Shown here piece after piece: positions 1 to 42,329 of a stretch of 42,329 bases of DNA. The DNA comes from Candidatus Doudnabacteria bacterium RIFCSPHIGHO2_01_FULL_46_24. Its GTDB lineage: Bacteria > Patescibacteriota > Doudnabacteria > UBA920 > O2-02-FULL-48-8. Both the position numbers and the translations under genes were made by a program. The stretch is from the NCBI GenBank assembly GCA_001777575.1, contig MFEL01000007.1:1-42329 (forward strand). The letters run 5' to 3'. Numbering within the stretch: the stretch's first letter is position 1; each line of letters opens with the position of its first letter. A model generated the notes under the pieces. It saw only the letters and a list, made by a program, of their open reading frames with translations. It had not been told where the DNA came from and did no database searches.

Positions 1-143
1 GAATCGCTAGTAACCGTGAATCAGCCTCGTCACGGTGAATACGTTCTCGGGTTTTGTACACACCGCCCGTCACGTCATGGAAGTGGGCAGTGCCCAAAGA
101 TCTCGCAAGAGGTTTAAGGCAAGGTTCATGACTGGGACGAAGT

Positions 144-927
144 CAACTTACGGCTTCCTATGCGAGCAATCGCATAAGCAAAATCTAACTATATCGGTGA
201 ACTCCTAAAGTAACGTTTAGGACAATACCGAGGGAAGTTAGGCTAGAAGCGCGAGTATGTCTCAAACAAAACTTGGTAATCAGATTAAACGAGCGGCATT
301 AACGCCACAAGAAATTGAGGTTGTTATAGCTTGTTTGATCGGTGATGGCACAATTTGTAAGTCTGGCAACGGTAGATATTATCGACTCCGTATCGAGCAC
401 TCGGCTCGGCACAAAGAGTACGTTGAATGGAAGTACAATCTTTTGAAAAGATTATGTATTTCGCAAATTCAATATCTTCCATCCAACGATTCTTACAAAG
501 TAGGCACAGTAGGCCATCCAGAAATTACCACGTTAAGAAAAGTTTGGTATCCATCAGAAGTAAAACAAGTTGCTGCCAATTTCAGGCTAACGCCTTTGAT
601 GATAGCAATCTGGTTCATGGACGATGGCACTAAGCATCGAGACACTGTGGACATTTCAGTCCACAACTTCTCTGATGAAAGCATAGAGATCTTAAAGAAC
701 GAATTACTAAGATACGGCATTGAAACTACAGTTAATTCGGATTCAAAAGGTTCTCGGCTCTACATCATTAAGAGAATTTATCCGCTCTTTAAAGAACTTG
801 TTAAACCGTACATTGTAAAATGTATGGCATACAAGTTGCCCTAACCCCGTAGAGACTATACGTTAGCTCCAAGGAAACTTGGATGAAGATATAGTCCGGC
901 ACTCTTAGTAATAAGAGATTACAGTCG
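144..927 (+). mobile_element. Group I intron in 16S rRNA, inserted after the U1495 equivalent (E. coli numbering)
   Basis: 5' exon ends in U143 and the intron ends in G927. The guide sequence TTACG-GCTTC (148-157) pairs with both exons (P10 with CGTAA; P1 with GAAGT including the U.G pair). R element AGAGACTATA (851-860) and S element AAGATATAGTCC (886-897) form P7. Confidence 0.93.
257..844 (+). CDS. Intron-encoded LAGLIDADG homing endonuclease (two-motif type)
   Basis: Motifs IACLIGDG and IAIWFMDDG; the ORF loops out between the pairing arms GTTAGGC and GCCTAAC. Confidence 0.92.
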   Translation: MSQTKLGNQIKRAALTPQEIEVVIACLIGDGTICKSGNGRYYRLRIEHSARHKEYVEWKYNLLKRLCISQIQYLPSNDSYKVGTVGHPEITTLRKVWYPSEVKQVAANFRLTPLMIAIWFMDDGTKHRDTVDISVHNFSDESIEILKNELLRYGIETTVNSDSKGSRLYIIKRIYPLFKELVKPYIVKCMAYKLP

Positions 928-1153
928 CGTAACAAGGCATCGGTAGCGGAAGCTGTCGATGGATCACCTCCTTTCTAAGGAGAAATTACTTGACCAGACC
1001 GCAATTCGTTGCGTCTGTCAAGCCAATATGGTCGTTTATCAGGTTTTATACCCTGATAGAACATCAAAGGACTTCAAAGTGAAAAGACGATTTTTACTCT
1101 GAATTTCGCAAGAAATTTGGAGACTTATTCCCAATAAATTGTTTGCAAATTTG

Positions 1154-5033: not shown

Positions 5034-5110
5034 GGGCGACTAGCTCAGGTGGTTAGAGCGCGTCACTGATAATGACGAGGTCGATGGTTCGAGTCCATCG
5101 TCGCCCACCA
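5034..5110 (+). tRNA. tRNA-Ile(GAU)
   Basis: Complete cloverleaf, anticodon loop CTGATAA, encoded CCA; extended -10 TGCTATAAT at 5003-5011. Confidence 0.97.
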
Positions 5111-5130
5111 GCAGGGCATAATTATAGGGC

Positions 5131-5222
5131 AGCGCGCCTGCCCCGTACCAAACGCGTAGCGTTTTGGTGCGGGGTCACTGATAATGACGAGGTCGATGGT
5201 TCGAGTCCATCGTCGCCCACCA
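5131..5222 (+). pseudogene. Duplicated 3' part of tRNA-Ile interrupted by a palindromic element
   Basis: 5131-5136 plus 5175-5222 are identical to 5057-5110; the insert 5137-5174 is CCTG-CCCCGTACCAAA...TTTGGTGCGGGG. Confidence 0.85.
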
Positions 5223-5240
5223 AAATCGCAAAGCGATTTT

Positions 5241-5270
5241 GCCTCGAGCGAGCGTAGCGAGTCGAGAGGC
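5241..5270. repeat. REP-like palindrome left of the GIY-YIG gene (inverted partner at about 5458-5497)
   Basis: GCCTCGAGCGAGCGTAGCGAGTCGAGAGGC; its reverse complement resembles CCCCTCGGCTCG...CTCGCTTGGGG on the other side. Confidence 0.6.
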
Positions 5271-5275
5271 TAAAG

Positions 5276-5483
5276 ATGTGGTATTTTTACATAGCAAGGT
5301 GCATTGATAAAAGTTTATATTGCGGTATTAGCAGTAACACCTTGAACCGTATTATTCGCCATAATAATCGCCGAGGCGCAAAATGGTTTACGAAGCATGG
5401 AAGCACAAATCAAGCGTTGGTCGAGAATAAAAAAAGAAAAATTAATTAACGGAGAATACCCCTCGGCTCGACTGAAGGCTTAG
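5276..5483 (+). pseudogene. GIY-YIG nuclease (YhbQ/UPF0213-like), internally deleted and frameshifted
   Basis: MWYFYIARCIDKSLYCGIS...RIIRHN...GAKW, then EAQIKRWSRIKKEKLI in another frame from 5400. Confidence 0.8.
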
Positions 5484-5517
5484 TCTCGCTTGGGGTAAAA
5501 ATTTTTTCAAAATTTTT

Positions 5518-5757
5518 ATGAGATTTGTCTGGGGAATGGTTTGGGTAGTGATAGGGTTTTTGCTAATTAGATACAATTACCTGCTGGTGGGATTTTTTGG
5601 CCATGTGCCGTGGGCCGAACAGCACATTGGTGGTGGGGGGACATACACACTTTACAAAATCGTCGGAGTCATCGTCATTATCCTCGGCATGCTGTACGCC
5701 TTCAATGCTGTTGGCTTCCTTACCGGCCCAGCCGGCACCCTGTTTCCTTCGCAATAA
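5518..5757 (+). CDS. Small two-TM membrane protein
   Basis: Two hydrophobic segments around WAEQHIGGGGTY. Confidence 0.75.
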   Translation: MRFVWGMVWVVIGFLLIRYNYLLVGFFGHVPWAEQHIGGGGTYTLYKIVGVIVIILGMLYAFNAVGFLTGPAGTLFPSQ

Positions 5758-5763
5758 TTACTC

Positions 5764-6088
5764 GGGCCATTAGCATAGTGGTAGTGCACCCGGCCGCGCC
5801 CCGTAGTCAACCGTAGGTTGTACTATCGGGGTTTGCACCCCGTACTAAATTTTTGATATTTGTTTTGTTGGGCCGTTAGCTCATTTGGTAGAGCGCCACA
5901 TTTGCAATGTGGAGGTGACCGGTTCGAGCCCGGTACGGTCCACCAGGATAAGAATCAAAAATTAGTACGGGGCAAGTCCGGCGGGTGCGAGTTCGATTCT
6001 CGCACGGTCCACCAGGATAAGTGATTTTCAAAAAATTAGTACGGGGCAAGTCCGGTGGGTGCGAGTTCGATTCTCCCATGCTCCACCA
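5764..6088 (+). pseudogene. Disrupted outer tRNA-Ala(UGC): 5' half 5764-5793, loop remnant 5832-5837, two 3' halves 5977-6014 and 6051-6088
   Basis: Removing the palindromic inserts gives a cloverleaf with G3.U70, loop TTTGCAT, T-loop TTCGATT and ACCA. Confidence 0.7.
5870..5945 (+). tRNA. tRNA-Ala(UGC)
   Basis: Complete cloverleaf, G3.U70 pair, anticodon loop TTTGCAA, encoded CCA. Confidence 0.97.
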
Positions 6089-12718: not shown

Positions 12719-13084
12719 ATGCGGGAAATTTTATTCGTCCATCCGGATGAAAAACTGTTGGTTATTTACCAGCAGAAGCTCAAACCTCACTTCAAGGTTC
12801 ATTCAGCCGTAGACGGGCTTTCGGCCGTAAGAAAAATTCGACTGATATCGCCGCAGGCCGTAATCAGCGAATACCGTTTGCCCTTGCTTTCCGGCAAAGC
12901 ATTGGTCCGATTCGTCCGCAGCTATAGCCCGACCGCAACCATTCCGTTTATCTTCTTTTCCCAGGAACACTTCGACCCGCAAGCGCTGAATCTGGGAGCT
13001 AATGATTGGTTAAGCCAGCAAACCACGCCGCCCGATGTGGTGATTGAAAAAATTCATTATCATTTAGGAGTGAAGAATGTATAA
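12719..13084 (+). CDS. Single-domain atypical receiver (CheY-like) protein
   Basis: Receiver pattern (ILFV, A.DG..A, P.AVISE, TATIPFIFFS, LGANDWL) with degenerate active-site residues. Confidence 0.8.
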   Translation: MREILFVHPDEKLLVIYQQKLKPHFKVHSAVDGLSAVRKIRLISPQAVISEYRLPLLSGKALVRFVRSYSPTATIPFIFFSQEHFDPQALNLGANDWLSQQTTPPDVVIEKIHYHLGVKNV

Positions 13085-14153
13085 GTCAATGGAGCTGGAA
13101 GTCAACAATTTGCTGATGCGCGTTTTGGAGCGCGGCGCGTCGGATTTACACCTAACCGCAGGTAAACCGCCGACTCTGCGGATCGACAGCAACCTCACCG
13201 AGCTCAAGGATTTCGAAGTGCTTTCAGGCAATGCCATCGCCTCCCTAATCGACGTTCTGTTGGGGAGCGAAGACAAGCGCAAACAATTCAAGGAGGATAG
13301 GGAATTGGACTTGTCCTTCTCGTTTAAGGACAACGTTCGGTTTCGAGTTAACGTCTATTACCAGAAAGGCTATCCGGCCGCCGCCTTGCGCTTGATACCC
13401 AATAAAATCAAAACCGTGGAAGAGCTGGGTTTGCCGCCGCAGATTAAAAGCTTTGTCAATTTCGCCCAGGGACTGGTGCTGATCGTCGGCCCAACCGGAC
13501 ACGGCAAATCCACGACGCTGGCTTCCTTGATTGATTTGATCAACCACAGCCGCGCGGAAAATATCGTAACTGTCGAAGATCCGATTGAATATATCTACAC
13601 CGCCGACCGCTGCATAATTAATCAGCGGGAGGTGGGCATGGATACCAAATCGTTCGGCCGAGCGTTGCGCTCGGTGCTAAGAGAGGATGCGGATGTGGTA
13701 CTGGTGGGGGAAATGCGGGATTTGGAATCCATCGCCACTACCATCACCATTGCCGAGACCGGGCATCTGGTGTTTGCCACCCTGCATACCAACAATGCCG
13801 CGCAGACCATTGACAGGATTATCGACGTCTTTCCGGCTTACCAGCAAAACCAAATCCGCTCGCAGCTTGCCAACATTTTAGTCGGTGTCATGTCGCAGAG
13901 GCTGCTGCCCAAAATTGGCGGTGGGCGCATGCCGGCCATGGAAATCATGATCACCAACAACGCCGTGGCCAATGTCATACGGGAAGGCAAAACTTACGAA
14001 TTGCCCAATATCATCCACACCAGTGCTTCATCCGGCATGGTTTCGCTGGATAAAAGCCTGGCTGATTTGGTCAGAAGCAATGTTGTCAAAGTCGAAGATG
14101 TTTTGCCTTATGTTTCCGACCACGATACGTTCGACGGCATTTTAAGGAGATAA
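13077..14153 (+). CDS. pilT: PilT retraction ATPase
   Basis: ASDLHL, GPTGHGKST, GEMRD, and AVANVIRE (AIRNLIRE-like). Confidence 0.95.
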   Translation: MYKSMELEVNNLLMRVLERGASDLHLTAGKPPTLRIDSNLTELKDFEVLSGNAIASLIDVLLGSEDKRKQFKEDRELDLSFSFKDNVRFRVNVYYQKGYPAAALRLIPNKIKTVEELGLPPQIKSFVNFAQGLVLIVGPTGHGKSTTLASLIDLINHSRAENIVTVEDPIEYIYTADRCIINQREVGMDTKSFGRALRSVLREDADVVLVGEMRDLESIATTITIAETGHLVFATLHTNNAAQTIDRIIDVFPAYQQNQIRSQLANILVGVMSQRLLPKIGGGRMPAMEIMITNNAVANVIREGKTYELPNIIHTSASSGMVSLDKSLADLVRSNVVKVEDVLPYVSDHDTFDGILRR

Positions 14154-14166
14154 TTGATTTAACAAA

Positions 14167-15369
14167 ATGGAATTTGCTTATCAAGCACGGGATAAGGAGG
14201 GGATGATGCGGACCGGGACTGTGGAAGCGGCCACCGAGGTTTTGGCTTATGACATGCTGCAGGAGCATGGATTGATCGTCATCAAGATCATTCCAGCCGG
14301 CAAGGTGACGCTGTTTTCTGAGTTCGCTTTTTTGGATAGGGTTTCGCTGAAAGATTTGGTTTTGTTTTCCCGCCAACTCTCAACCCTGATTAACGCCAAG
14401 GTGCCGATCGTGACGGCGCTTCGGGTTTTGAAAAGCCAGGTTTCTTCACGCAGGCTCCAGAAAATCATTGATGAAGTCACGACCAAAGTGGAAAACGGCG
14501 ACAGCCTGTCCTCCGCGCTGGCAGCCTATCCGAAGATTTTCAGCGACCTTTACATCAACATGATCAAATCAGGAGAGCTGGCCGGGAGCATGGATGAGTC
14601 GCTGATGTACCTGGCCAACCAGTTGGAGAAAGATTATGACCTCCGCTCAAAAATAATTTCCTCGCTGACCTATCCGGCGTTCATTGTGGTGGCATTGTTC
14701 GTGGTCGGGATATTGATGTTTATCTACGTTTTACCCCCTTTGGTTTCAATCCTGCAAGAACAAGCGGTCAGCTTGCCGTTCACGACCAAGATCTTGATTG
14801 CCATCACCAATGCCGTCCAGCATTATTGGTGGTTATTGCTGATACTCCTGGCGGGATTGATCGTGGGCTTGAGGATCTATATCCAAACCACGGTTGGCCG
14901 CTACGTCATGGATTACCTCAAACTGCACTTGCCGGTTTTCGGGAAATTGTTCAAAAATATTTACCTCTCTCGTTTCTCAAGAAACTTGGCCACGCTGGTA
15001 GCCGGCGGCATTCCCATAGTCAGGGCGCTGGATTCGGTTGCCGACACGGTGGGAAACCAGATTTATAAGGACATCATCCACGATGCCGCCTATCAAGTCA
15101 AAAACGGCAAAACCATTGCCAGCTCCTTAAGCGGCAAGCGGGACGTGCCGGAAGTTTTGGCTCAGATGACCCAGATCGGCGAGCAGACCGGGAACCTGCA
15201 GGACATTATGGCCAAGATTGCTTCCTTTTACGAGAAGGAAGTCGAGTCTATGCTGAGGGTTTTGACCACGCTGATTGAGCCTTTGATCATGATGCTTCTG
15301 GGCTTGGCGGTGGCGGTCATGGTTGCAGGAATTTTATTGCCGATATATAATTTAGCCAGTACAGCATAG
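14167..15369 (+). CDS. pilC: PilC/GspF platform protein
   Basis: FSRQLSTL, SGELAG, LTYP, IGEQTGNL, LIEP. Confidence 0.95.
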   Translation: MEFAYQARDKEGMMRTGTVEAATEVLAYDMLQEHGLIVIKIIPAGKVTLFSEFAFLDRVSLKDLVLFSRQLSTLINAKVPIVTALRVLKSQVSSRRLQKIIDEVTTKVENGDSLSSALAAYPKIFSDLYINMIKSGELAGSMDESLMYLANQLEKDYDLRSKIISSLTYPAFIVVALFVVGILMFIYVLPPLVSILQEQAVSLPFTTKILIAITNAVQHYWWLLLILLAGLIVGLRIYIQTTVGRYVMDYLKLHLPVFGKLFKNIYLSRFSRNLATLVAGGIPIVRALDSVADTVGNQIYKDIIHDAAYQVKNGKTIASSLSGKRDVPEVLAQMTQIGEQTGNLQDIMAKIASFYEKEVESMLRVLTTLIEPLIMMLLGLAVAVMVAGILLPIYNLASTA

Positions 15370-15410
15370 AGTCCTTAATGATACAAAAGGCTTGGAAGGG
15401 GGTGAACTAA

Positions 15411-15875
15411 TTGAAGTATATCAAATCTCAAAAAGGGTTCACTTTGATTGAATTGTTGGTGGTTATCGCCATTATCGGCATTTTGGCCGCTGTGGTGTTG
15501 GTTTCTCTTAACTCCGCCAGACAGAAATCCAGAGATGCCCGCAGGCTTGCGGATATCAGGCAAATCCAAACCGCTATGGAGTTGTTTTATAACGACAACA
15601 ACAGCTATCCTGATGACGGCGGAGCTTCGCCGACAGCCACGGACGGCACCCCGGCTTGGAGCACATATATGTCGCTTTGGCCGGTCGCACCTACCCCGGA
15701 AGATGGTACCTGCACTGCAGCAAACAATGCCTACGTTTACACCGGACGTAACGCGGGTGACAGCGCAGATGACGCATCTGACCCGGCGTTTTACCGTGTC
15801 GCGTTTTGTTTGGGTGCGCTTACCGGCGGACAAGCCGCGGGTACGCATAATGCCACCCCATCTGGCATCAACTAA
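15411..15875 (+). CDS. Type IV pilin (likely the major pilin)
   Basis: KG|[27 protein letters not shown]. Confidence 0.93.
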
Positions 15876-15941
15876 GGTTTAAGGATAGATTTCCAGCCCC
15901 ACATTGTGGAGCTGGACTTGTATACTTAAAAATCACGTATC

Positions 15942-16421
15942 ATGAATCACGTAACACGCAACAAAAATTCAGGGTTTACCCTGATCGAGCTTCTTGTGGT
16001 CGTAGCCATAATTGGGCTTTTGGCGTCCATTGTTTTGGTGGGTATGGGCAACGCGCGCATCAAAGGCCGGGATGCCAAACGCTTGTCTGACACGCAGGCA
16101 GTCAAATCAGGCTTAGATATTTATTACAGTTTCGGCTCAGGCTATCCTGCAACCACGGAATGGGATAATGCCCAAAACAATCTCACTCAGCTGGCCTGCT
16201 CGGGCCAAACCGCGTTCAAACCGCCGCAGGACCCGATCAACACCAGCAATCCCGCGTTTGACTATGTTTACACCCAGGGCGGCACTGCCTCCACCGGCTG
16301 CGGCGGAAATGTCTACAGCACTTACAAGATTCAATTTACGACTGAAGGCGCCACTGGCATCGGGCCGGCCGGCACTTATTACCTGCATCCCGGCGGCATA
16401 ACTTCCACAGCGCCGTTTTAA
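15942..16421 (+). CDS. Type IV pilin
   Basis: SG|[17 protein letters not shown]; the start codon lies inside a heptamer repeat. Confidence 0.93.
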   Translation: MNHVTRNKNSGFTLIELLVVVAIIGLLASIVLVGMGNARIKGRDAKRLSDTQAVKSGLDIYYSFGSGYPATTEWDNAQNNLTQLACSGQTAFKPPQDPINTSNPAFDYVYTQGGTASTGCGGNVYSTYKIQFTTEGATGIGPAGTYYLHPGGITSTAPF

Positions 16422-16422
16422 A

Positions 16423-17181
16423 ATGTTTTTTGCGGTTTTCATCTTTGGCCTGATAATTGGCAGCTTTCTCAATGCTGCCATTTTTCGTTTGCATTCTGGA
16501 GAGGGAATAGTTAGCGGTCGTTCTAAATGCGTGCATTGCGGCCATGTGCTTGAAGCCCGAGATTTAGTGCCGGTCTTAAGCTTTATTTTTTTGCGCGGCC
16601 GGTGCCGTTATTGCAAAGCTCGGATTTCTTGGCAGTATCCAATTGTCGAGTTGATCACGTCGATAGCTTTTATTTTACTTGCGTCGAATTACGAATTACG
16701 AATTACGAATTACGAATTTTGGATTCAAGCATTTTTCATCTGCACTTTCATCATTATTGCAGTTTATGACTATAAGCATTACCTGATTTTGGACAAGGTT
16801 GTTTTTCCCTCACTCGGTTTTGCTTTTGTGTTTGCAGCGGTTAGTGGCCAACAGCCAATTGTTAATAGTCTGTTGGGGGCTCTGGCCATTGCCGGTTTTT
16901 TTGGACTCCAATACCTGCTCTCCAAGGGTCGTTGGATAGGCCTGGGAGACGTAAAATTCGGACTCCTATTTGGAGCGGTGCTCGGGCTCAAATTATCAGT
17001 TGCTGGCCTGTTTTTGGCTTACTTTATTGGAGCCTTGGCAGGTATGGCTTTGTTGGCCCTAAACAGGAAAAAACTTTCCGACAAACTGCCGTTTGGAGTT
17101 TTTTTGTCAACTGCGGCGATAGTTGTTTTACTGTATGGCGAGAAAATCCTCGCTTGGTATGAGAACTTGACAGGGCTATAA
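16423..17181 (+). CDS. pilD: Prepilin peptidase
   Basis: GSFLN, RSKCVHC, GRCRYC, catalytic YD and GLGDVK, LPFG. Confidence 0.95.
   Translation: MFFAVFIFGLIIGSFLNAAIFRLHSGEGIVSGRSKCVHCGHVLEARDLVPVLSFIFLRGRCRYCKARISWQYPIVELITSIAFILLASNYELRITNYEFWIQAFFICTFIIIAVYDYKHYLILDKVVFPSLGFAFVFAAVSGQQPIVNSLLGALAIAGFFGLQYLLSKGRWIGLGDVKFGLLFGAVLGLKLSVAGLFLAYFIGALAGMALLALNRKKLSDKLPFGVFLSTAAIVVLLYGEKILAWYENLTGL
16685..16718. repeat. Perfect heptamer tandem repeat (CGAATTA) x 4.9 inside pilD
   Basis: Read directly; encodes SNYELRITNYEF. Confidence 0.9.
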
Positions 17182-17224
17182 ATAATTGATAACATTGTTT
17201 TAGTAAGCTTAATAATTACAAAAT

Positions 17225-17458
17225 CGTTGATCCTGGGAATAGTAGTCTCGCTTGAAAGAGCGGGGTGAATGGGCCCAGGGGAGATGCTTGGGGCATTAGT
17301 CTCAAGCCGGTTTCCTCCGTAATCAAAGGATAATTGATGTCTGCCGAAAAACGGCACGAGTCAATGAGTAGAAAAACAGGGTGGCAACACGTGAGTTAAA
17401 GACTCTTCGTCCCTTGGCATATCTTTTGATATGCGCAGAGATGAGGAGTTTTTGTTTT
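17225..17458 (+). ncRNA. T-box riboswitch, Trp-specific, short Stem I, transcriptional attenuator
   Basis: AGTA (17241) / GAA (17267) loop-E motif, specifier TGG (17270-17272), T-box AGGGTGGCAACACG (17378-17391) pairing with CGTCCCT (17408-17414), and an alternative terminator 17402-17458 with a U-tract. Confidence 0.85.
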
Positions 17459-17480
17459 GAATTTCACATGGAGGAACACC

Positions 17481-17705
17481 ATGATCGGACAAGACACGAA
17501 AGTGCGCCCATCGGAAGAGGTCCGGCTTACCAGTGGCGGGGTGATTACACCCGTTCAGCTTGCGGAAGCGATCAGGTATCACGCTCAGGCCACAGGGACC
17601 GCACTTGAAGCGGTTACAGCCATGGTTGCCCGCAGCGAGCTGGTGCCGGTGTCGTGGACGAAAGGAGGAGTCATTCTTGTTTACAACAGCCCGAATGGGC
17701 TGTAG
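17481..17705 (+). CDS. 74-aa hypothetical protein, first gene after the T-box
   Basis: SD GGAGG before ATG 17481. Confidence 0.65.
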   Translation: MIGQDTKVRPSEEVRLTSGGVITPVQLAEAIRYHAQATGTALEAVTAMVARSELVPVSWTKGGVILVYNSPNGL

Positions 17706-17786
17706 TGGAAACGCGCCGTAGTGAGCAATCAGGCAATCAGTCTCAAGCCTGTTGCTCACTACCTGGATTTAATTTAAACTTATTTT

Positions 17787-18971
17787 ATGCGATTACGGAA
17801 TAAAAAATATTTTGGCCAGTTTGGCGGTCAGTTTGTGCCGGAAACCTTGATGCAGCCCCTAACCGAGCTAGAAAGAGCTTACGTAAAATTCAAAAAGGAC
17901 AAAAAAACCCAAGCCGAACTCAAATCATTGATTAAGGATTTTGTGGGACGTCCAACGCCTTTATATTTTGCTCAAAAACTTTCAAAAAAACTCGGCCAAA
18001 TAATATATCTTAAGCGCGAGGATTTAACCCATACCGGGGCGCATAAAATAAATAACGCAGCCGGACAGGCGCTACTTGCCAAATTTATGGGCAAGAGGAG
18101 GGTAATTGCCGAGACCGGAGCGGGTCAGCACGGCGTGGCCACAGCCGCTGCGGCGGCAAAGTTGGGGCTGGAATGCGTGGTATACATGGGCAAAGTGGAC
18201 ATGGGGCGCCAGGCGCCGAATGTTTTGAGAATGAAATTATTGGGCGCCAAAGTCGTGCCAGTAGCCAGTGGCAGCCAAACCTTAAAGGACGCGATTAACG
18301 AAGCCCTTCGCGATTGGATTGCCAATGTCAGCACCACTCATTACTTGCTCGGATCGGTATTGGGCCCTTATCCATATCCCGCCATGGTCCGGGATTTTCA
18401 AAAAATTATCGGACAGGAAGCCAGAAAACAAATTTTGCAGGCCGAAGGCCGGCTGCCGGATTATTTAGTGGCCTGTGTCGGCGGCGGGAGCAATGCATTG
18501 GGCTTGTTCCATGATTTTTTGCCGGATAAAAAAGTCCAAATGATAGGAGTTGAGGCAGGCGGATTGGGAATCAAGTCAGGCAAACATGCGGCCAGATTTT
18601 TCGGCGGCAAGCTTGGGGTTTTGCACGGCACCAAATCCTACGTGCTGCAGGATAAATTTGGCCAGATTTTGACCACCCACAGCATTTCAGCGGGGCTTGA
18701 TTATCCGAGCGTCGGGCCGGAACACAGCTTTTTACGCCAGCAAAAAAGAATCAGTTATGCATATATTACCGACAGGGAAGCTCTCGCCGGGCTTAAATTG
18801 TTGTCACAGCAAGAAGGAATTATCCCAGCTCTTGAGTCGGCGCACGCGGTCGCTTATGCTTCGAAACTGGCAAAAAAAATTTTCCACGGCAAATTAATTA
18901 TTATCAATCTTTCAGGCCGGGGGGATAAGGACTTGGAAGCCATCAGAGATTTAGGAGTGATTCATGGATAG
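17787..18971 (+). CDS. trpB: Tryptophan synthase beta chain
   Basis: HTGAHKINN (PLP lysine), [31 protein letters not shown]. Confidence 0.98.
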
Positions 18972-19740
18972 GATCGGTAAGTGTTTCAAAGAATTGCGCA
19001 GGCAGAAAAAGATGGCATTTATGCCTTTTGTCGTAGCCGGAGATCCTGATTATAAAACTAGCCTAAAAATTGTCCGCGAGCTGGTAAAAAACGCTGATTT
19101 TTTGGAACTGGGATTTCCCTACTCCGATCCTCTGGCTGACGGGCCGGTGATTCAGCGCGCGGACATGCGGGCATTGGCTTCGGGAATGAATTCCGACAGG
19201 GTGTTTAGGCTGATAAGCAAAATCAGAGTTTTTAGCGACATCCCGATTACAGTTTTAGCTTATGCCAATTTAGTTTACCGGCGGGGAGTTGATAAATTTT
19301 ACCGGGATGCCGGTAGGGCTGGAATTGACGCAGTTCTGGTTCCTGACCTGCCGGTGGAAGAGTCAGACAAATTTGTGAAGGCCGCCAAGAAATACGGCAT
19401 TGATTCGATTTTTTTGGTTGCCCAGACCACGACCAAAGCGAGGATGAAAAAAATCCTGAAGCAGGCATCAGGGTATCTTTATTTGGTTTCTATTCTGGGA
19501 GTTACCGGGATCCGAAAAGACATCGCCCCAGAAACTCTGGGCCTGATCAGGCAGCTTAAGAAATTAAGCAAGCTTCCGGTTGTGGTAGGGTTTGGCGTTT
19601 CCAATGCCAGGCAAATAAAGATTTTGAGAAAAGCCAAAGCGGACGGCGTGATCGTGGGCAGCGCCATAGTAAAGGTAATTGAAAAGTATAAGAGGAATCC
19701 ATCGAGAGCTATTAAGGAATTTATTAAAGGCTTGAATTAA
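18964..19740 (+). CDS. trpA: Tryptophan synthase alpha chain
   Basis: [18 protein letters not shown] (catalytic E and D intact), GVTG, VGFG, IVGSA. Confidence 0.97.

Positions 19741-41151: not shown

Positions 41152-42329
<1,178 letters not shown>

Follow-up and report, generated by a model that had tools for sequence, protein, structure and literature searches.

We analysed a 42,329-nt stretch of DNA from Candidatus Doudnabacteria bacterium RIFCSPHIGHO2_01_FULL_46_24 (contig MFEL01000007.1, positions 1 to 42,329 of the forward strand; hereafter the window), in which the tryptophan synthase genes trpB and trpA are preceded by a small open reading frame (ORF) and, further upstream, by a leader with the architecture of a T-box riboswitch. 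The original prediction, made from the letters alone, had described this leader as an unusual, tryptophan-specific, transcriptional T-box with an ultra-short Stem I in a genome of the Candidate Phyla Radiation (CPR) type. The latter description fits the host, which has a genome of 847 kb and a relative of the same family (G007) titled Candidatus Doudnabacteria. The elements of the locus are listed here with the basis of each assignment.

17167-17195, + strand: promoter-like site, with a -35 TTGACA (17167-17172), a 17-nt spacer with TG and a -10 TAACAT (17190-17195) (consensus scan).
17218-17459, + strand: complete T-box leader, beginning with the 5' A-rich lead and ending with the U tract (RF00230 match and fold).
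17223-17285, + strand: Stem I, 63 nt, with base helix 17223-17225/17283-17285 and a 6-bp lower helix 17232-17237/17274-17279 (Rfam alignment, fold).
17226-17230 with 17280-17282, + strand: GA (K-turn) motif of Stem I, GUUGA with GGA (Rfam alignment, fold).
17238-17244, + strand: 5' side of the specifier loop, AAUAGUA, including the AGUA of the loop-E/S-turn motif (aligned to the AGUA of the model; invariant in five leaders).
17245-17266, + strand: distal Stem I cap, formed by a 9-bp hairpin and its GAAA tetraloop (17254-17257) in place of the AG bulge and distal loop that form the interdigitated T-loop platform (IDTM) (fold).
17267-17273, + strand: 3' side of the specifier loop, with GAA, the UGG specifier (17270-17272) and the purine G17273 (Rfam alignment).
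17286-17307, + strand: Stem II, a 5-bp helix (17286-17290/17303-17307) with loop GGGCAUUAGUCU (pair counts in five leaders, fold).
17308-17330, + strand: Stem IIA (17308-17310/17317-17319) and the IIB pseudoknot of UCCU (17313-17316) with AGGA (17327-17330) (Rfam alignment).
17317-17322, + strand: F-box-like CCGUAA within the IIA/B region.
17334-17364, + strand: Stem III, with outer helix UUGAU/GUCAA, inner helix GCCG/CGGC and loop AAAAA (folds).
17378-17414, + strand: antiterminator with the T-box sequence AGGGUGGCAACACG (17378-17391) and its 7-nt bulge UGGCAAC (17382-17388) (Rfam alignment, constrained fold of -8.9 kcal/mol).
17402-17459, + strand: intrinsic terminator, a 19-bp hairpin (17402-17449, -26.1 kcal/mol) followed by the U tract UUUUUGUUUU (fold).
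17470-17705, + strand: ribosome binding site (RBS) GGAGGA (17470-17475) and 74-aa ORF (17481-17705), the predicted first regulated gene (ORF list, sequence).
17716-17766, + strand: strong hairpin between the 74-aa ORF and trpB (fold of 17700-17790, -28.9 kcal/mol).
17787-18971, + strand: trpB, tryptophan synthase beta (TIGR00263 equivalog, 617.8 bits, cut-off 392).
18964-19740, + strand: trpA, tryptophan synthase alpha (TIGR00262, 317.4 bits; PF00290).

The Rfam T-box model RF00230 aligned to positions 17218-17417 of the + strand with 219/219 model positions covered, and this full-length match, obtained in the model search proposed with the original prediction, scored 54.4 bits with an E-value of 5.4e-11 in an 801-nt search and of 1.4e-11 against the whole genome. 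The leader region folds far more stably than its shuffles (z = -5.97; 0/200 shuffles equalled it), and the Stem II domain, IIA/B pseudoknot and F-box expected of a T-box are all present. Upstream, the promoter-like site agrees with the consensus at 10/12 positions and, by consensus match only, predicts a transcription start near 17202.

With respect to Stem I, the model alignment places a codon followed by a purine inside the AGUA/GAA loop-E frame, and UGG lies directly 3' of GAA and before G17273, which is where the specifier had been predicted. Above the specifier loop, 44 distal positions of the RF00230 model are replaced by 5 nt, and the leader has no IDTM because AG bulge and distal loop are both missing there. 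The predicted length of about 60 nt and lack of an apical T-loop module thus agree with the 63 nt and the GAAA-capped hairpin that we find. The label "ultra-short", however, was wrong. The specifier sits in an internal loop under the 9-bp hairpin, and so this Stem I is "intermediate" in the published nomenclature, whereas the thrS leader of the same genome (described below) is ultrashort.

Downstream of Stem I, the Stem II loop carries the motif GC...AGU that is conserved in the wider family of leaders described below (A, G and U in 84, 97 and 99% of 142 distinct family sequences), with the window reading AGUC where the family has AGUG. The fold was also evaluated by counting pairs in five homologous short-Stem-I leaders from three genera, namely those of the window, of G007 and of G032 and two proline leaders (CCA specifier, ahead of proC) of the same short-Stem-I design; Stem III was omitted from the scoring because it is variable among homologues. 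In this set, 96.4% of structure cells pair, compared with 36-55% when the 3' partner is slid, and 10/41 pairs, including 4/9 in the distal cap, change on both sides. The base and lower helices of Stem I (three pairs changed on both sides), the IIB pseudoknot and the antiterminator helices are 100% paired, and the terminator is 84.1% paired (35-55% when slid). With so few related sequences (five), these counts speak for the fold without proving it.

The T-box sequence AGGGUGGCAACACG is identical to the model consensus at 11/14 positions, one of the three differences being at a variable N, and its 7-nt bulge carries UGGN. As originally predicted, terminator and antiterminator are mutually exclusive, since both use positions 17402-17414 (-26.1 versus -8.9 kcal/mol), and the design is one of termination rather than sequestration because the RBS falls outside the hairpin. 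The tRNA-Trp of the same genome (contig C1, 9911-9984) reads CCA in the anticodon, carries G73 and has its CCA end encoded in the gene, and G73-CCA was found in 6/6 tRNA-Trp genes checked across the order. Both the UGG specifier and the UGGC of the bulge (17382-17385) therefore fit the cognate tRNA, and the complementarity proposed earlier for a typical bacterial G73-CCA end holds for the genome's own tRNA. Further, trpB and trpA, both above the NCBIfam equivalog cut-offs, match the specified amino acid; they do lie downstream as claimed, although the immediate neighbour of the leader is the 74-aa ORF.

The sequence elements, the tRNA match, the alternative folds and the covariation described so far, like the family pattern and gene context described below, are established; that the element is a working tryptophan-responsive T-box transcription attenuator is, in our judgement, highly probable. 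The original prediction of an unusual short-Stem-I, Trp-specific, transcriptional T-box is supported by the T-box core, the UGG specifier, the match of UGGC to G73 and the terminator/antiterminator alternative. We infer tRNA binding, antitermination with readthrough, compensation for the lost elbow contact and co-transcription of trpBA past the hairpin at 17716-17766, along the following lines. Transcription would start near 17202, and the CCA anticodon of tRNA-Trp would pair with UGG 17270-17272 in the Stem I internal loop, with Stem II and the IIA/B pseudoknot buttressing this contact, as in Stem I-truncated actinobacterial T-boxes. If the tRNA is uncharged, its G73-C-C-A end would pair with UGGC 17382-17385 and hold the weak antiterminator against the much stronger terminator, allowing RNA polymerase to continue into the 74-aa ORF and trpBA; if it is charged, the terminator would form and transcription would halt at the U tract (17449-17458).

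Homologous leaders were found in close relatives. Among 41 genomes of relatives, including that of the window (G000), 10 have an RF00230 match at E <= 0.01 and none has one above the Rfam cut-off. The closest counterparts come from other genera, one in the same family (G007) and one in another family of the order (G032), and both keep GAA-UGG-A and a short capped Stem I, with 5 and 3 nt, respectively, standing in for 46 distal model positions. Loss of the specifier in homologous leaders had been named as a refuting observation, and UGG is instead retained in these two and in a large related family that often lies ahead of Trp genes. The G007 leader precedes a LMWPc-type gene, a 345-aa ORF with no assigned family, a DIT1_PvcA-family gene and a HAD hydrolase, and the G032 leader precedes a lone 85-aa Cys-rich ORF. 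The Trp leaders do not travel with trpB.

The wider family was collected by using the 26-nt IIA/B pseudoknot motif, with four positions free, as the query, which gave at least 117 matches in metagenome contigs and 95 in species-representative genomes; 80 loci were taken from each set. By record title, 55/80 genome loci belong to CPR lineages (Parcubacteria, Staskawicz-, Falkow-, Nealson-, Moran-, Kerfeld-, Komeili-, Buchanan-, Magasanik-, Azam-, Taylor-, Giovannoni- and Doudnabacteria, "Patescibacteria group" and "Saccharibacteria"), 14/80 are called only "bacterium" and 11/80 carry other labels. Genomes with other, non-actinobacterial labels (Gammaproteobacteria, Nitrospira, Magnetospirillaceae) measure 0.6-1.5 Mb in the 8 of 9 that were checked (L257 left out). 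The two labelled Actinomycetota measure 2.2-2.4 Mb, and their T-boxes, which have a long Stem I, exceed the cut-off (110-112 bits). Sorted by our own regular-expression and fold rules, the Stem I classes were distributed as follows.

Metagenome loci (80): short without loop E, 61; apical-loop specifier, 9; short with loop E, 0; long with loop E, 3; unparsed, 5; too little upstream sequence, 2.
Genome loci (80): short without loop E, 68; apical-loop specifier, 3; short with loop E, 2 (G007 and G032); long with loop E, 3; unparsed, 4; too little upstream sequence, 0.

The platform is absent from Stem I in 143/149 parsed loci (metagenome 70/73, genome 73/76). When a terminator was defined as a hairpin of -12 kcal/mol or stronger abutting a U tract 3' of the T-box, hairpin and U tract were present in 147/148 scorable leaders (70/70, median -27.6 kcal/mol, and 77/78). 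The T-box regular expression failed in 11/84 leaders, 7 of which had 152 nt or less downstream of the motif. Inspection by eye of such failures revealed a variant T-box and terminator in L093 and L137 and, in the genome set, a T-box and terminator in L191 and L242; L221, also of the genome set, has a weak hairpin only. The bulge of the family is UGGU or UGGC (44 and 26 leaders in the metagenome set, 34 and 44 in the genome set). Downstream genes are often trpS, trpB, trpD or trpE, and a Trp-linked family (of Trp-pathway or W/Y-tRNA-synthetase type) occurs within about 1.4 kb in 25/53 loci scanned: tRNA-synt_1b (W/Y) in 7, PALP in 7, Glycos_transf_3 in 6, Chorismate_bind in 2, and Trp_syntA, GATase and DAHP synthase in 1 each, with PALP and tRNA-synt_1b being broader than TrpB and TrpRS. 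A Stem I without a platform is the common design among related Trp T-boxes of CPR bacteria, and the reading of the window's short-Stem-I T-box as unusual stands in comparison with published transcriptional forms, but not as a one-off.

Across the order, 43/146 genomes have a T-box match at E <= 0.001, none of them above the Rfam cut-off. The median length of full-model matches is 168 nt in the order (42/55 under 200 nt) and 188 nt in an even sample of the phylum (58/92 under 200 nt). Distal Stem I is deleted in 13/13 order alignments inspected, including the longest matches, the extra length of which consists of Stem II or Stem III insertions. Long Stem I forms do exist in CPR bacteria: in a Komeilibacteria Trp leader that shares the pseudoknot, Stem I is full-length and includes the AG bulge.

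Several observations on individual family members are worth recording. L063 and L087 (metagenome) have a Trp decoding module (Stem I, Stem II, IIA/B and Stem III) and a GC hairpin with U tract, followed by a TrpB-like ORF, and no T-box/antiterminator sequence was found in either leader; they could be broken leaders or have a different read-out. In L093, L191 and L221, an extra hairpin and U tract, resembling a second terminator, lies between Stem III and the T-box sequence. L042 and L046, order relatives with an apical-loop Stem I, have Stem II insertions of 86 nt and 123 nt, which are possibly relocated tRNA-contact modules. Further, CPR Trp T-boxes also lie ahead of non-classical genes (L006/L013 (G007), L101, L128, L035, L075, L079, L123, L005/L012), such as a LMWPc-type phosphatase-fold gene followed by a TrpD-like (Glycos_transf_3) gene or an unassigned ORF, and AstE_AspA-family genes (4 loci).

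We compared the window leader with the known T-box classes as they are set out in the sources cited here. In Class I, Stem I is long and includes the IDTM, and a Stem II is present; Class II, the glycine type, lacks Stem II; Class III has a short, IDTM-less Stem I, carries the specifier in the apical loop and needs Stem II; and in Class IV, Stem I is of intermediate length, again lacking the IDTM, and the specifier is placed laterally (PMC10482949). According to reviews, transcriptional T-boxes generally need a long Stem I and an elbow-docking platform (PMC7583486, PMC11297988), the platform being essential in transcriptional and expendable in translational T-boxes (PMC7583486, section 6.2) for the kinetic reason that tRNA capture must be fast, ahead of RNA polymerase reaching the terminator (PMC7583486). 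A truncated Stem I is known from translational T-boxes, mostly of actinobacterial ileS (PMC7583486, PMC11297988, PMC10482949).

Like Class I T-boxes (the Bacillus subtilis tyrS type, RF00230, and Firmicutes Trp T-boxes), the window leader has a GA/K-turn base, an AGUA/GAA loop with codon and purine, Stem II, a IIA/B pseudoknot with F-box, Stem III, a T-box sequence with UGGN bulge, a terminator/antiterminator switch and an operon matching the specified amino acid. Unlike Class I or II, it lacks the AG bulge and distal loop of a long Stem I and hence any IDTM that could stack on the tRNA elbow; its Stem I measures 63 nt rather than about 100, its score is below the cut-off and its host is a CPR bacterium. 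In leaders related to the window's, UGGU also occurs with G73, and this U-G73 wobble has been noted before in Trp T-boxes (PMC7778990). With Class IV (Actinomyces odontolyticus ileS; PMC10482949), the leader shares an intermediate Stem I without IDTM, a specifier in a lateral loop between two helices, and Stem II. Class IV is made up of Ile-specific actinobacterial ileS leaders described as translational, whereas the window leader is Trp-specific, lies ahead of trpBA, retains the loop-E motif and has an intrinsic terminator at its end. With Class III (Nocardia farcinica and Mycobacterium tuberculosis ileS), it shares the lack of an IDTM and, likely, a reliance on Stem II and the IIA/B pseudoknot to hold the anticodon arm. 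Unlike Class III, it has a hairpin above the specifier loop, and in place of the Shine-Dalgarno sequestrator/antisequestrator of Classes III and IV it has a hairpin with U tract and the RBS outside; the apical-loop specifier of Class III is found instead in the thrS leader of the same genome and in 12/160 family loci. The predicted decoding module is Class IV-like and the predicted output domain Class I-like. The unusual feature is a Stem I that has no elbow-docking platform although the predicted output is transcription termination, a combination that reviews regard as an exception.

Several points weigh against the reading of this leader as a working attenuator within a common CPR design. 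Function is predicted from the sequence. The score of 54.4 bits is under the Rfam gathering cut-off of 93 bits, so the leader falls outside the family as Rfam delimits it and, for the same reason, no T-box is listed in an Rfam scan of the window at gathering threshold, the match emerging in E-value mode only; the shortfall has one visible cause, namely the 44 distal Stem I positions reduced to 5 nt. The minimum free energy fold can zip the Stem II loop into a 9-bp G.U-rich plain hairpin, and in this loop AGU is kept but a 5' GAA partner for an S-turn is not evident. Helix A2 of the antiterminator contains a U.U mismatch. A simple terminator scan of the + strand did not flag the T-box terminator, because its rules need a 3-8-nt loop, while this hairpin has internal loops. 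Between the 74-aa ORF and trpB lies the hairpin region of -28.9 kcal/mol, past which any readthrough into trpBA would have to go. The leader is not a conserved trpB leader within its order: trpB occurs in 11/146 genomes, and a survey of trpB leaders, suggested earlier for CPR bacteria and confined here to the order, revealed a T-box at E <= 1 at none of the 10 other trpB loci. In the closest trpB relative (G001, trpB 79% identical), the 390-nt upstream region, read by eye, contains no T-box, and both a homologue of the 74-aa ORF and a hairpin ahead of trpB are kept. Finally, the family sample was picked by one conserved motif and includes 13 exact duplicates among its 160 loci, and the Stem I and terminator classes depend on rules of our own.

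Given that the platform is called essential in transcriptional T-boxes (PMC7583486), the elbow contact could have been relocated, with the Stem II loop, Stem III or a protein replacing the platform and the tRNA being sensed at the usual three points. The very strong conservation of the Stem II loop motif and the extra Stem I hairpins or 86-123-nt Stem II insertions of some relatives speak for such an arrangement, but the window leader has no spare domain (Stem II measures 22 nt and Stem III 31 nt), and the Stem II of the solved truncated actinobacterial T-boxes touches the anticodon stem-loop rather than the elbow (PMC10482949). We consider a relocated contact unlikely.

It is considerably more doubtful that the leader is a decaying or non-functional relic that has lost distal Stem I and whose terminator always fires or is bypassed. 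The score under the Rfam cut-off, the lack of a T-box in the closest trpB relative and an 18-nt partial leader copy downstream, which hints at rearrangement, could be read in this way; however, the core elements are all intact and fit the cognate tRNA, compensatory changes preserve the helices across three genera, and about 140 related leaders, their terminators intact, show the same reduced design. Translational control, in which the 3' hairpin would act as a sequestrator as in Stem I-truncated actinobacterial ileS T-boxes, is similarly improbable: the literature associates a truncated Stem I with translation (PMC11297988, PMC7583486), but UUUUUGUUUU lies directly 3' of the hairpin 17402-17449, the RBS GGAGGA is 21 nt beyond the stem and not included in it, and 147/148 scorable family members have a hairpin and U tract. 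Sensing of a non-Trp tRNA through a specifier in another frame (AUG, GGG or AAU) is scarcely credible, for although GAAUGGGC contains overlapping triplets and TBDB also considers the -1 and +1 frames (PMC7778990), UGG is in the canonical place, right after GAA and followed by a purine and then a helix, the bulge fits G73 of tRNA-Trp, trpBA lies downstream and family members lie ahead of trpS, trpB, trpD and trpE.

Returning to the reading of the leader as a tryptophan-responsive attenuator, we ask how far it represents its phylum. We judge the chances to be about even that T-boxes without IDTM and with an intrinsic terminator are the prevailing design of CPR/Patescibacteria, and that, in a stepwise reduction running from long Stem I, through short with loop E and short without loop E, to an apical-loop specifier, the window's Trp leader occupies an intermediate position, with the thrS leader, which has also lost Stem II, reduced further. 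If so, co-transcriptional tRNA sensing would work without the elbow contact held essential for transcriptional T-boxes, which would imply either that CPR transcription is slower or pauses or that the tRNA is contacted in a way still to be observed, and a riboswitch class would be systematically missed by current models and databases. The CPR leaders would be natural, conserved and numerous counter-examples to the long-Stem-I requirement, which makes the kinetic argument directly testable. T-box matches occur in 50/151 genomes of the even phylum sample, or about a third, and standard annotation misses them almost entirely because only 5/151 have a match above the cut-off. Full-text searches, whose scope excluded subscription journals and supplementary tables (TBDB taxa among them), found no publication joining T-boxes with CPR lineages, and a literature search for short Stem I together with a terminator gave none on CPR bacteria, judging by title or the start of the abstract. 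These leaders may also offer a regulatory handle on the control of amino acid salvage in reduced organisms, here of trpBA without the rest of the pathway.

With respect to the genes at the locus, no IGPS, TrpD-type or TrpE-type family match was found in the genome, which is scored 100% complete, and none of trpC, trpD and trpE was seen. Because the rest of the Trp pathway was not found, trpBA, standing alone, most likely salvages indole. The 74-aa ORF matched no Pfam or NCBIfam family, gave no usable feature hit in the ESM Atlas (structural neighbours weak, TM <= 0.54) and shows no similarity to the 85-aa ORF behind the G032 leader; G001 has a homologue ahead of trpB (51% identity) and G006 a weakly similar one (39%). 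The hairpin before trpB contains, at 17736-17753, an 18-nt direct near-repeat (16/18) of T-box positions 17295-17312, which take in the 3' half of Stem II together with the beginning of IIA (rough chance estimate <0.01 for a 700-nt region). It could be a rearrangement relic, and it is absent from the hairpin at the corresponding place in G001. The T-box is immediately preceded by genes for a type IV pilus (13077-17181), which encode a T2SSE ATPase, a T2SSF platform protein, a prepilin with N-methylation motif and an A24 prepilin peptidase.

The genome has a second T-box, upstream of thrS (contig C1, 26867-27060; L002, 1501-1694), which is more reduced than the Trp leader. Its Stem I consists of a K-turn, a 4-bp helix and a 9-nt apical loop ACUCACCAA with ACC (Thr), Stem II is missing (27 model positions replaced by 2 nt), and the IIA/B pseudoknot and Stem III are retained. 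The UGGA bulge fits U73 of tRNA-Thr(GGU), and the terminator CCAAGCA-GUGA-UGCUUGG is followed by a U tract. A T-box without both platform and Stem II is not among the four classes set out in PMC10482949.

Finally, we note some features of the rRNA genes at the ends of the window. The Rfam alignment of the 3' part of the 16S gene ends at 191 without the anti-Shine-Dalgarno tail, but GATCACCTCCTT is found at 962-973, pointing to about 770 nt inserted close to the 3' end of the 16S gene (window positions 1-973). The end of the 16S gene and the start of the 23S gene are about 40 kb apart, with tRNA-Ile at 5034, tRNA-Ala at 5870 (5034-5945) and protein genes between them, and the 5' part of the 23S gene (41152-42329) contains several insertions.

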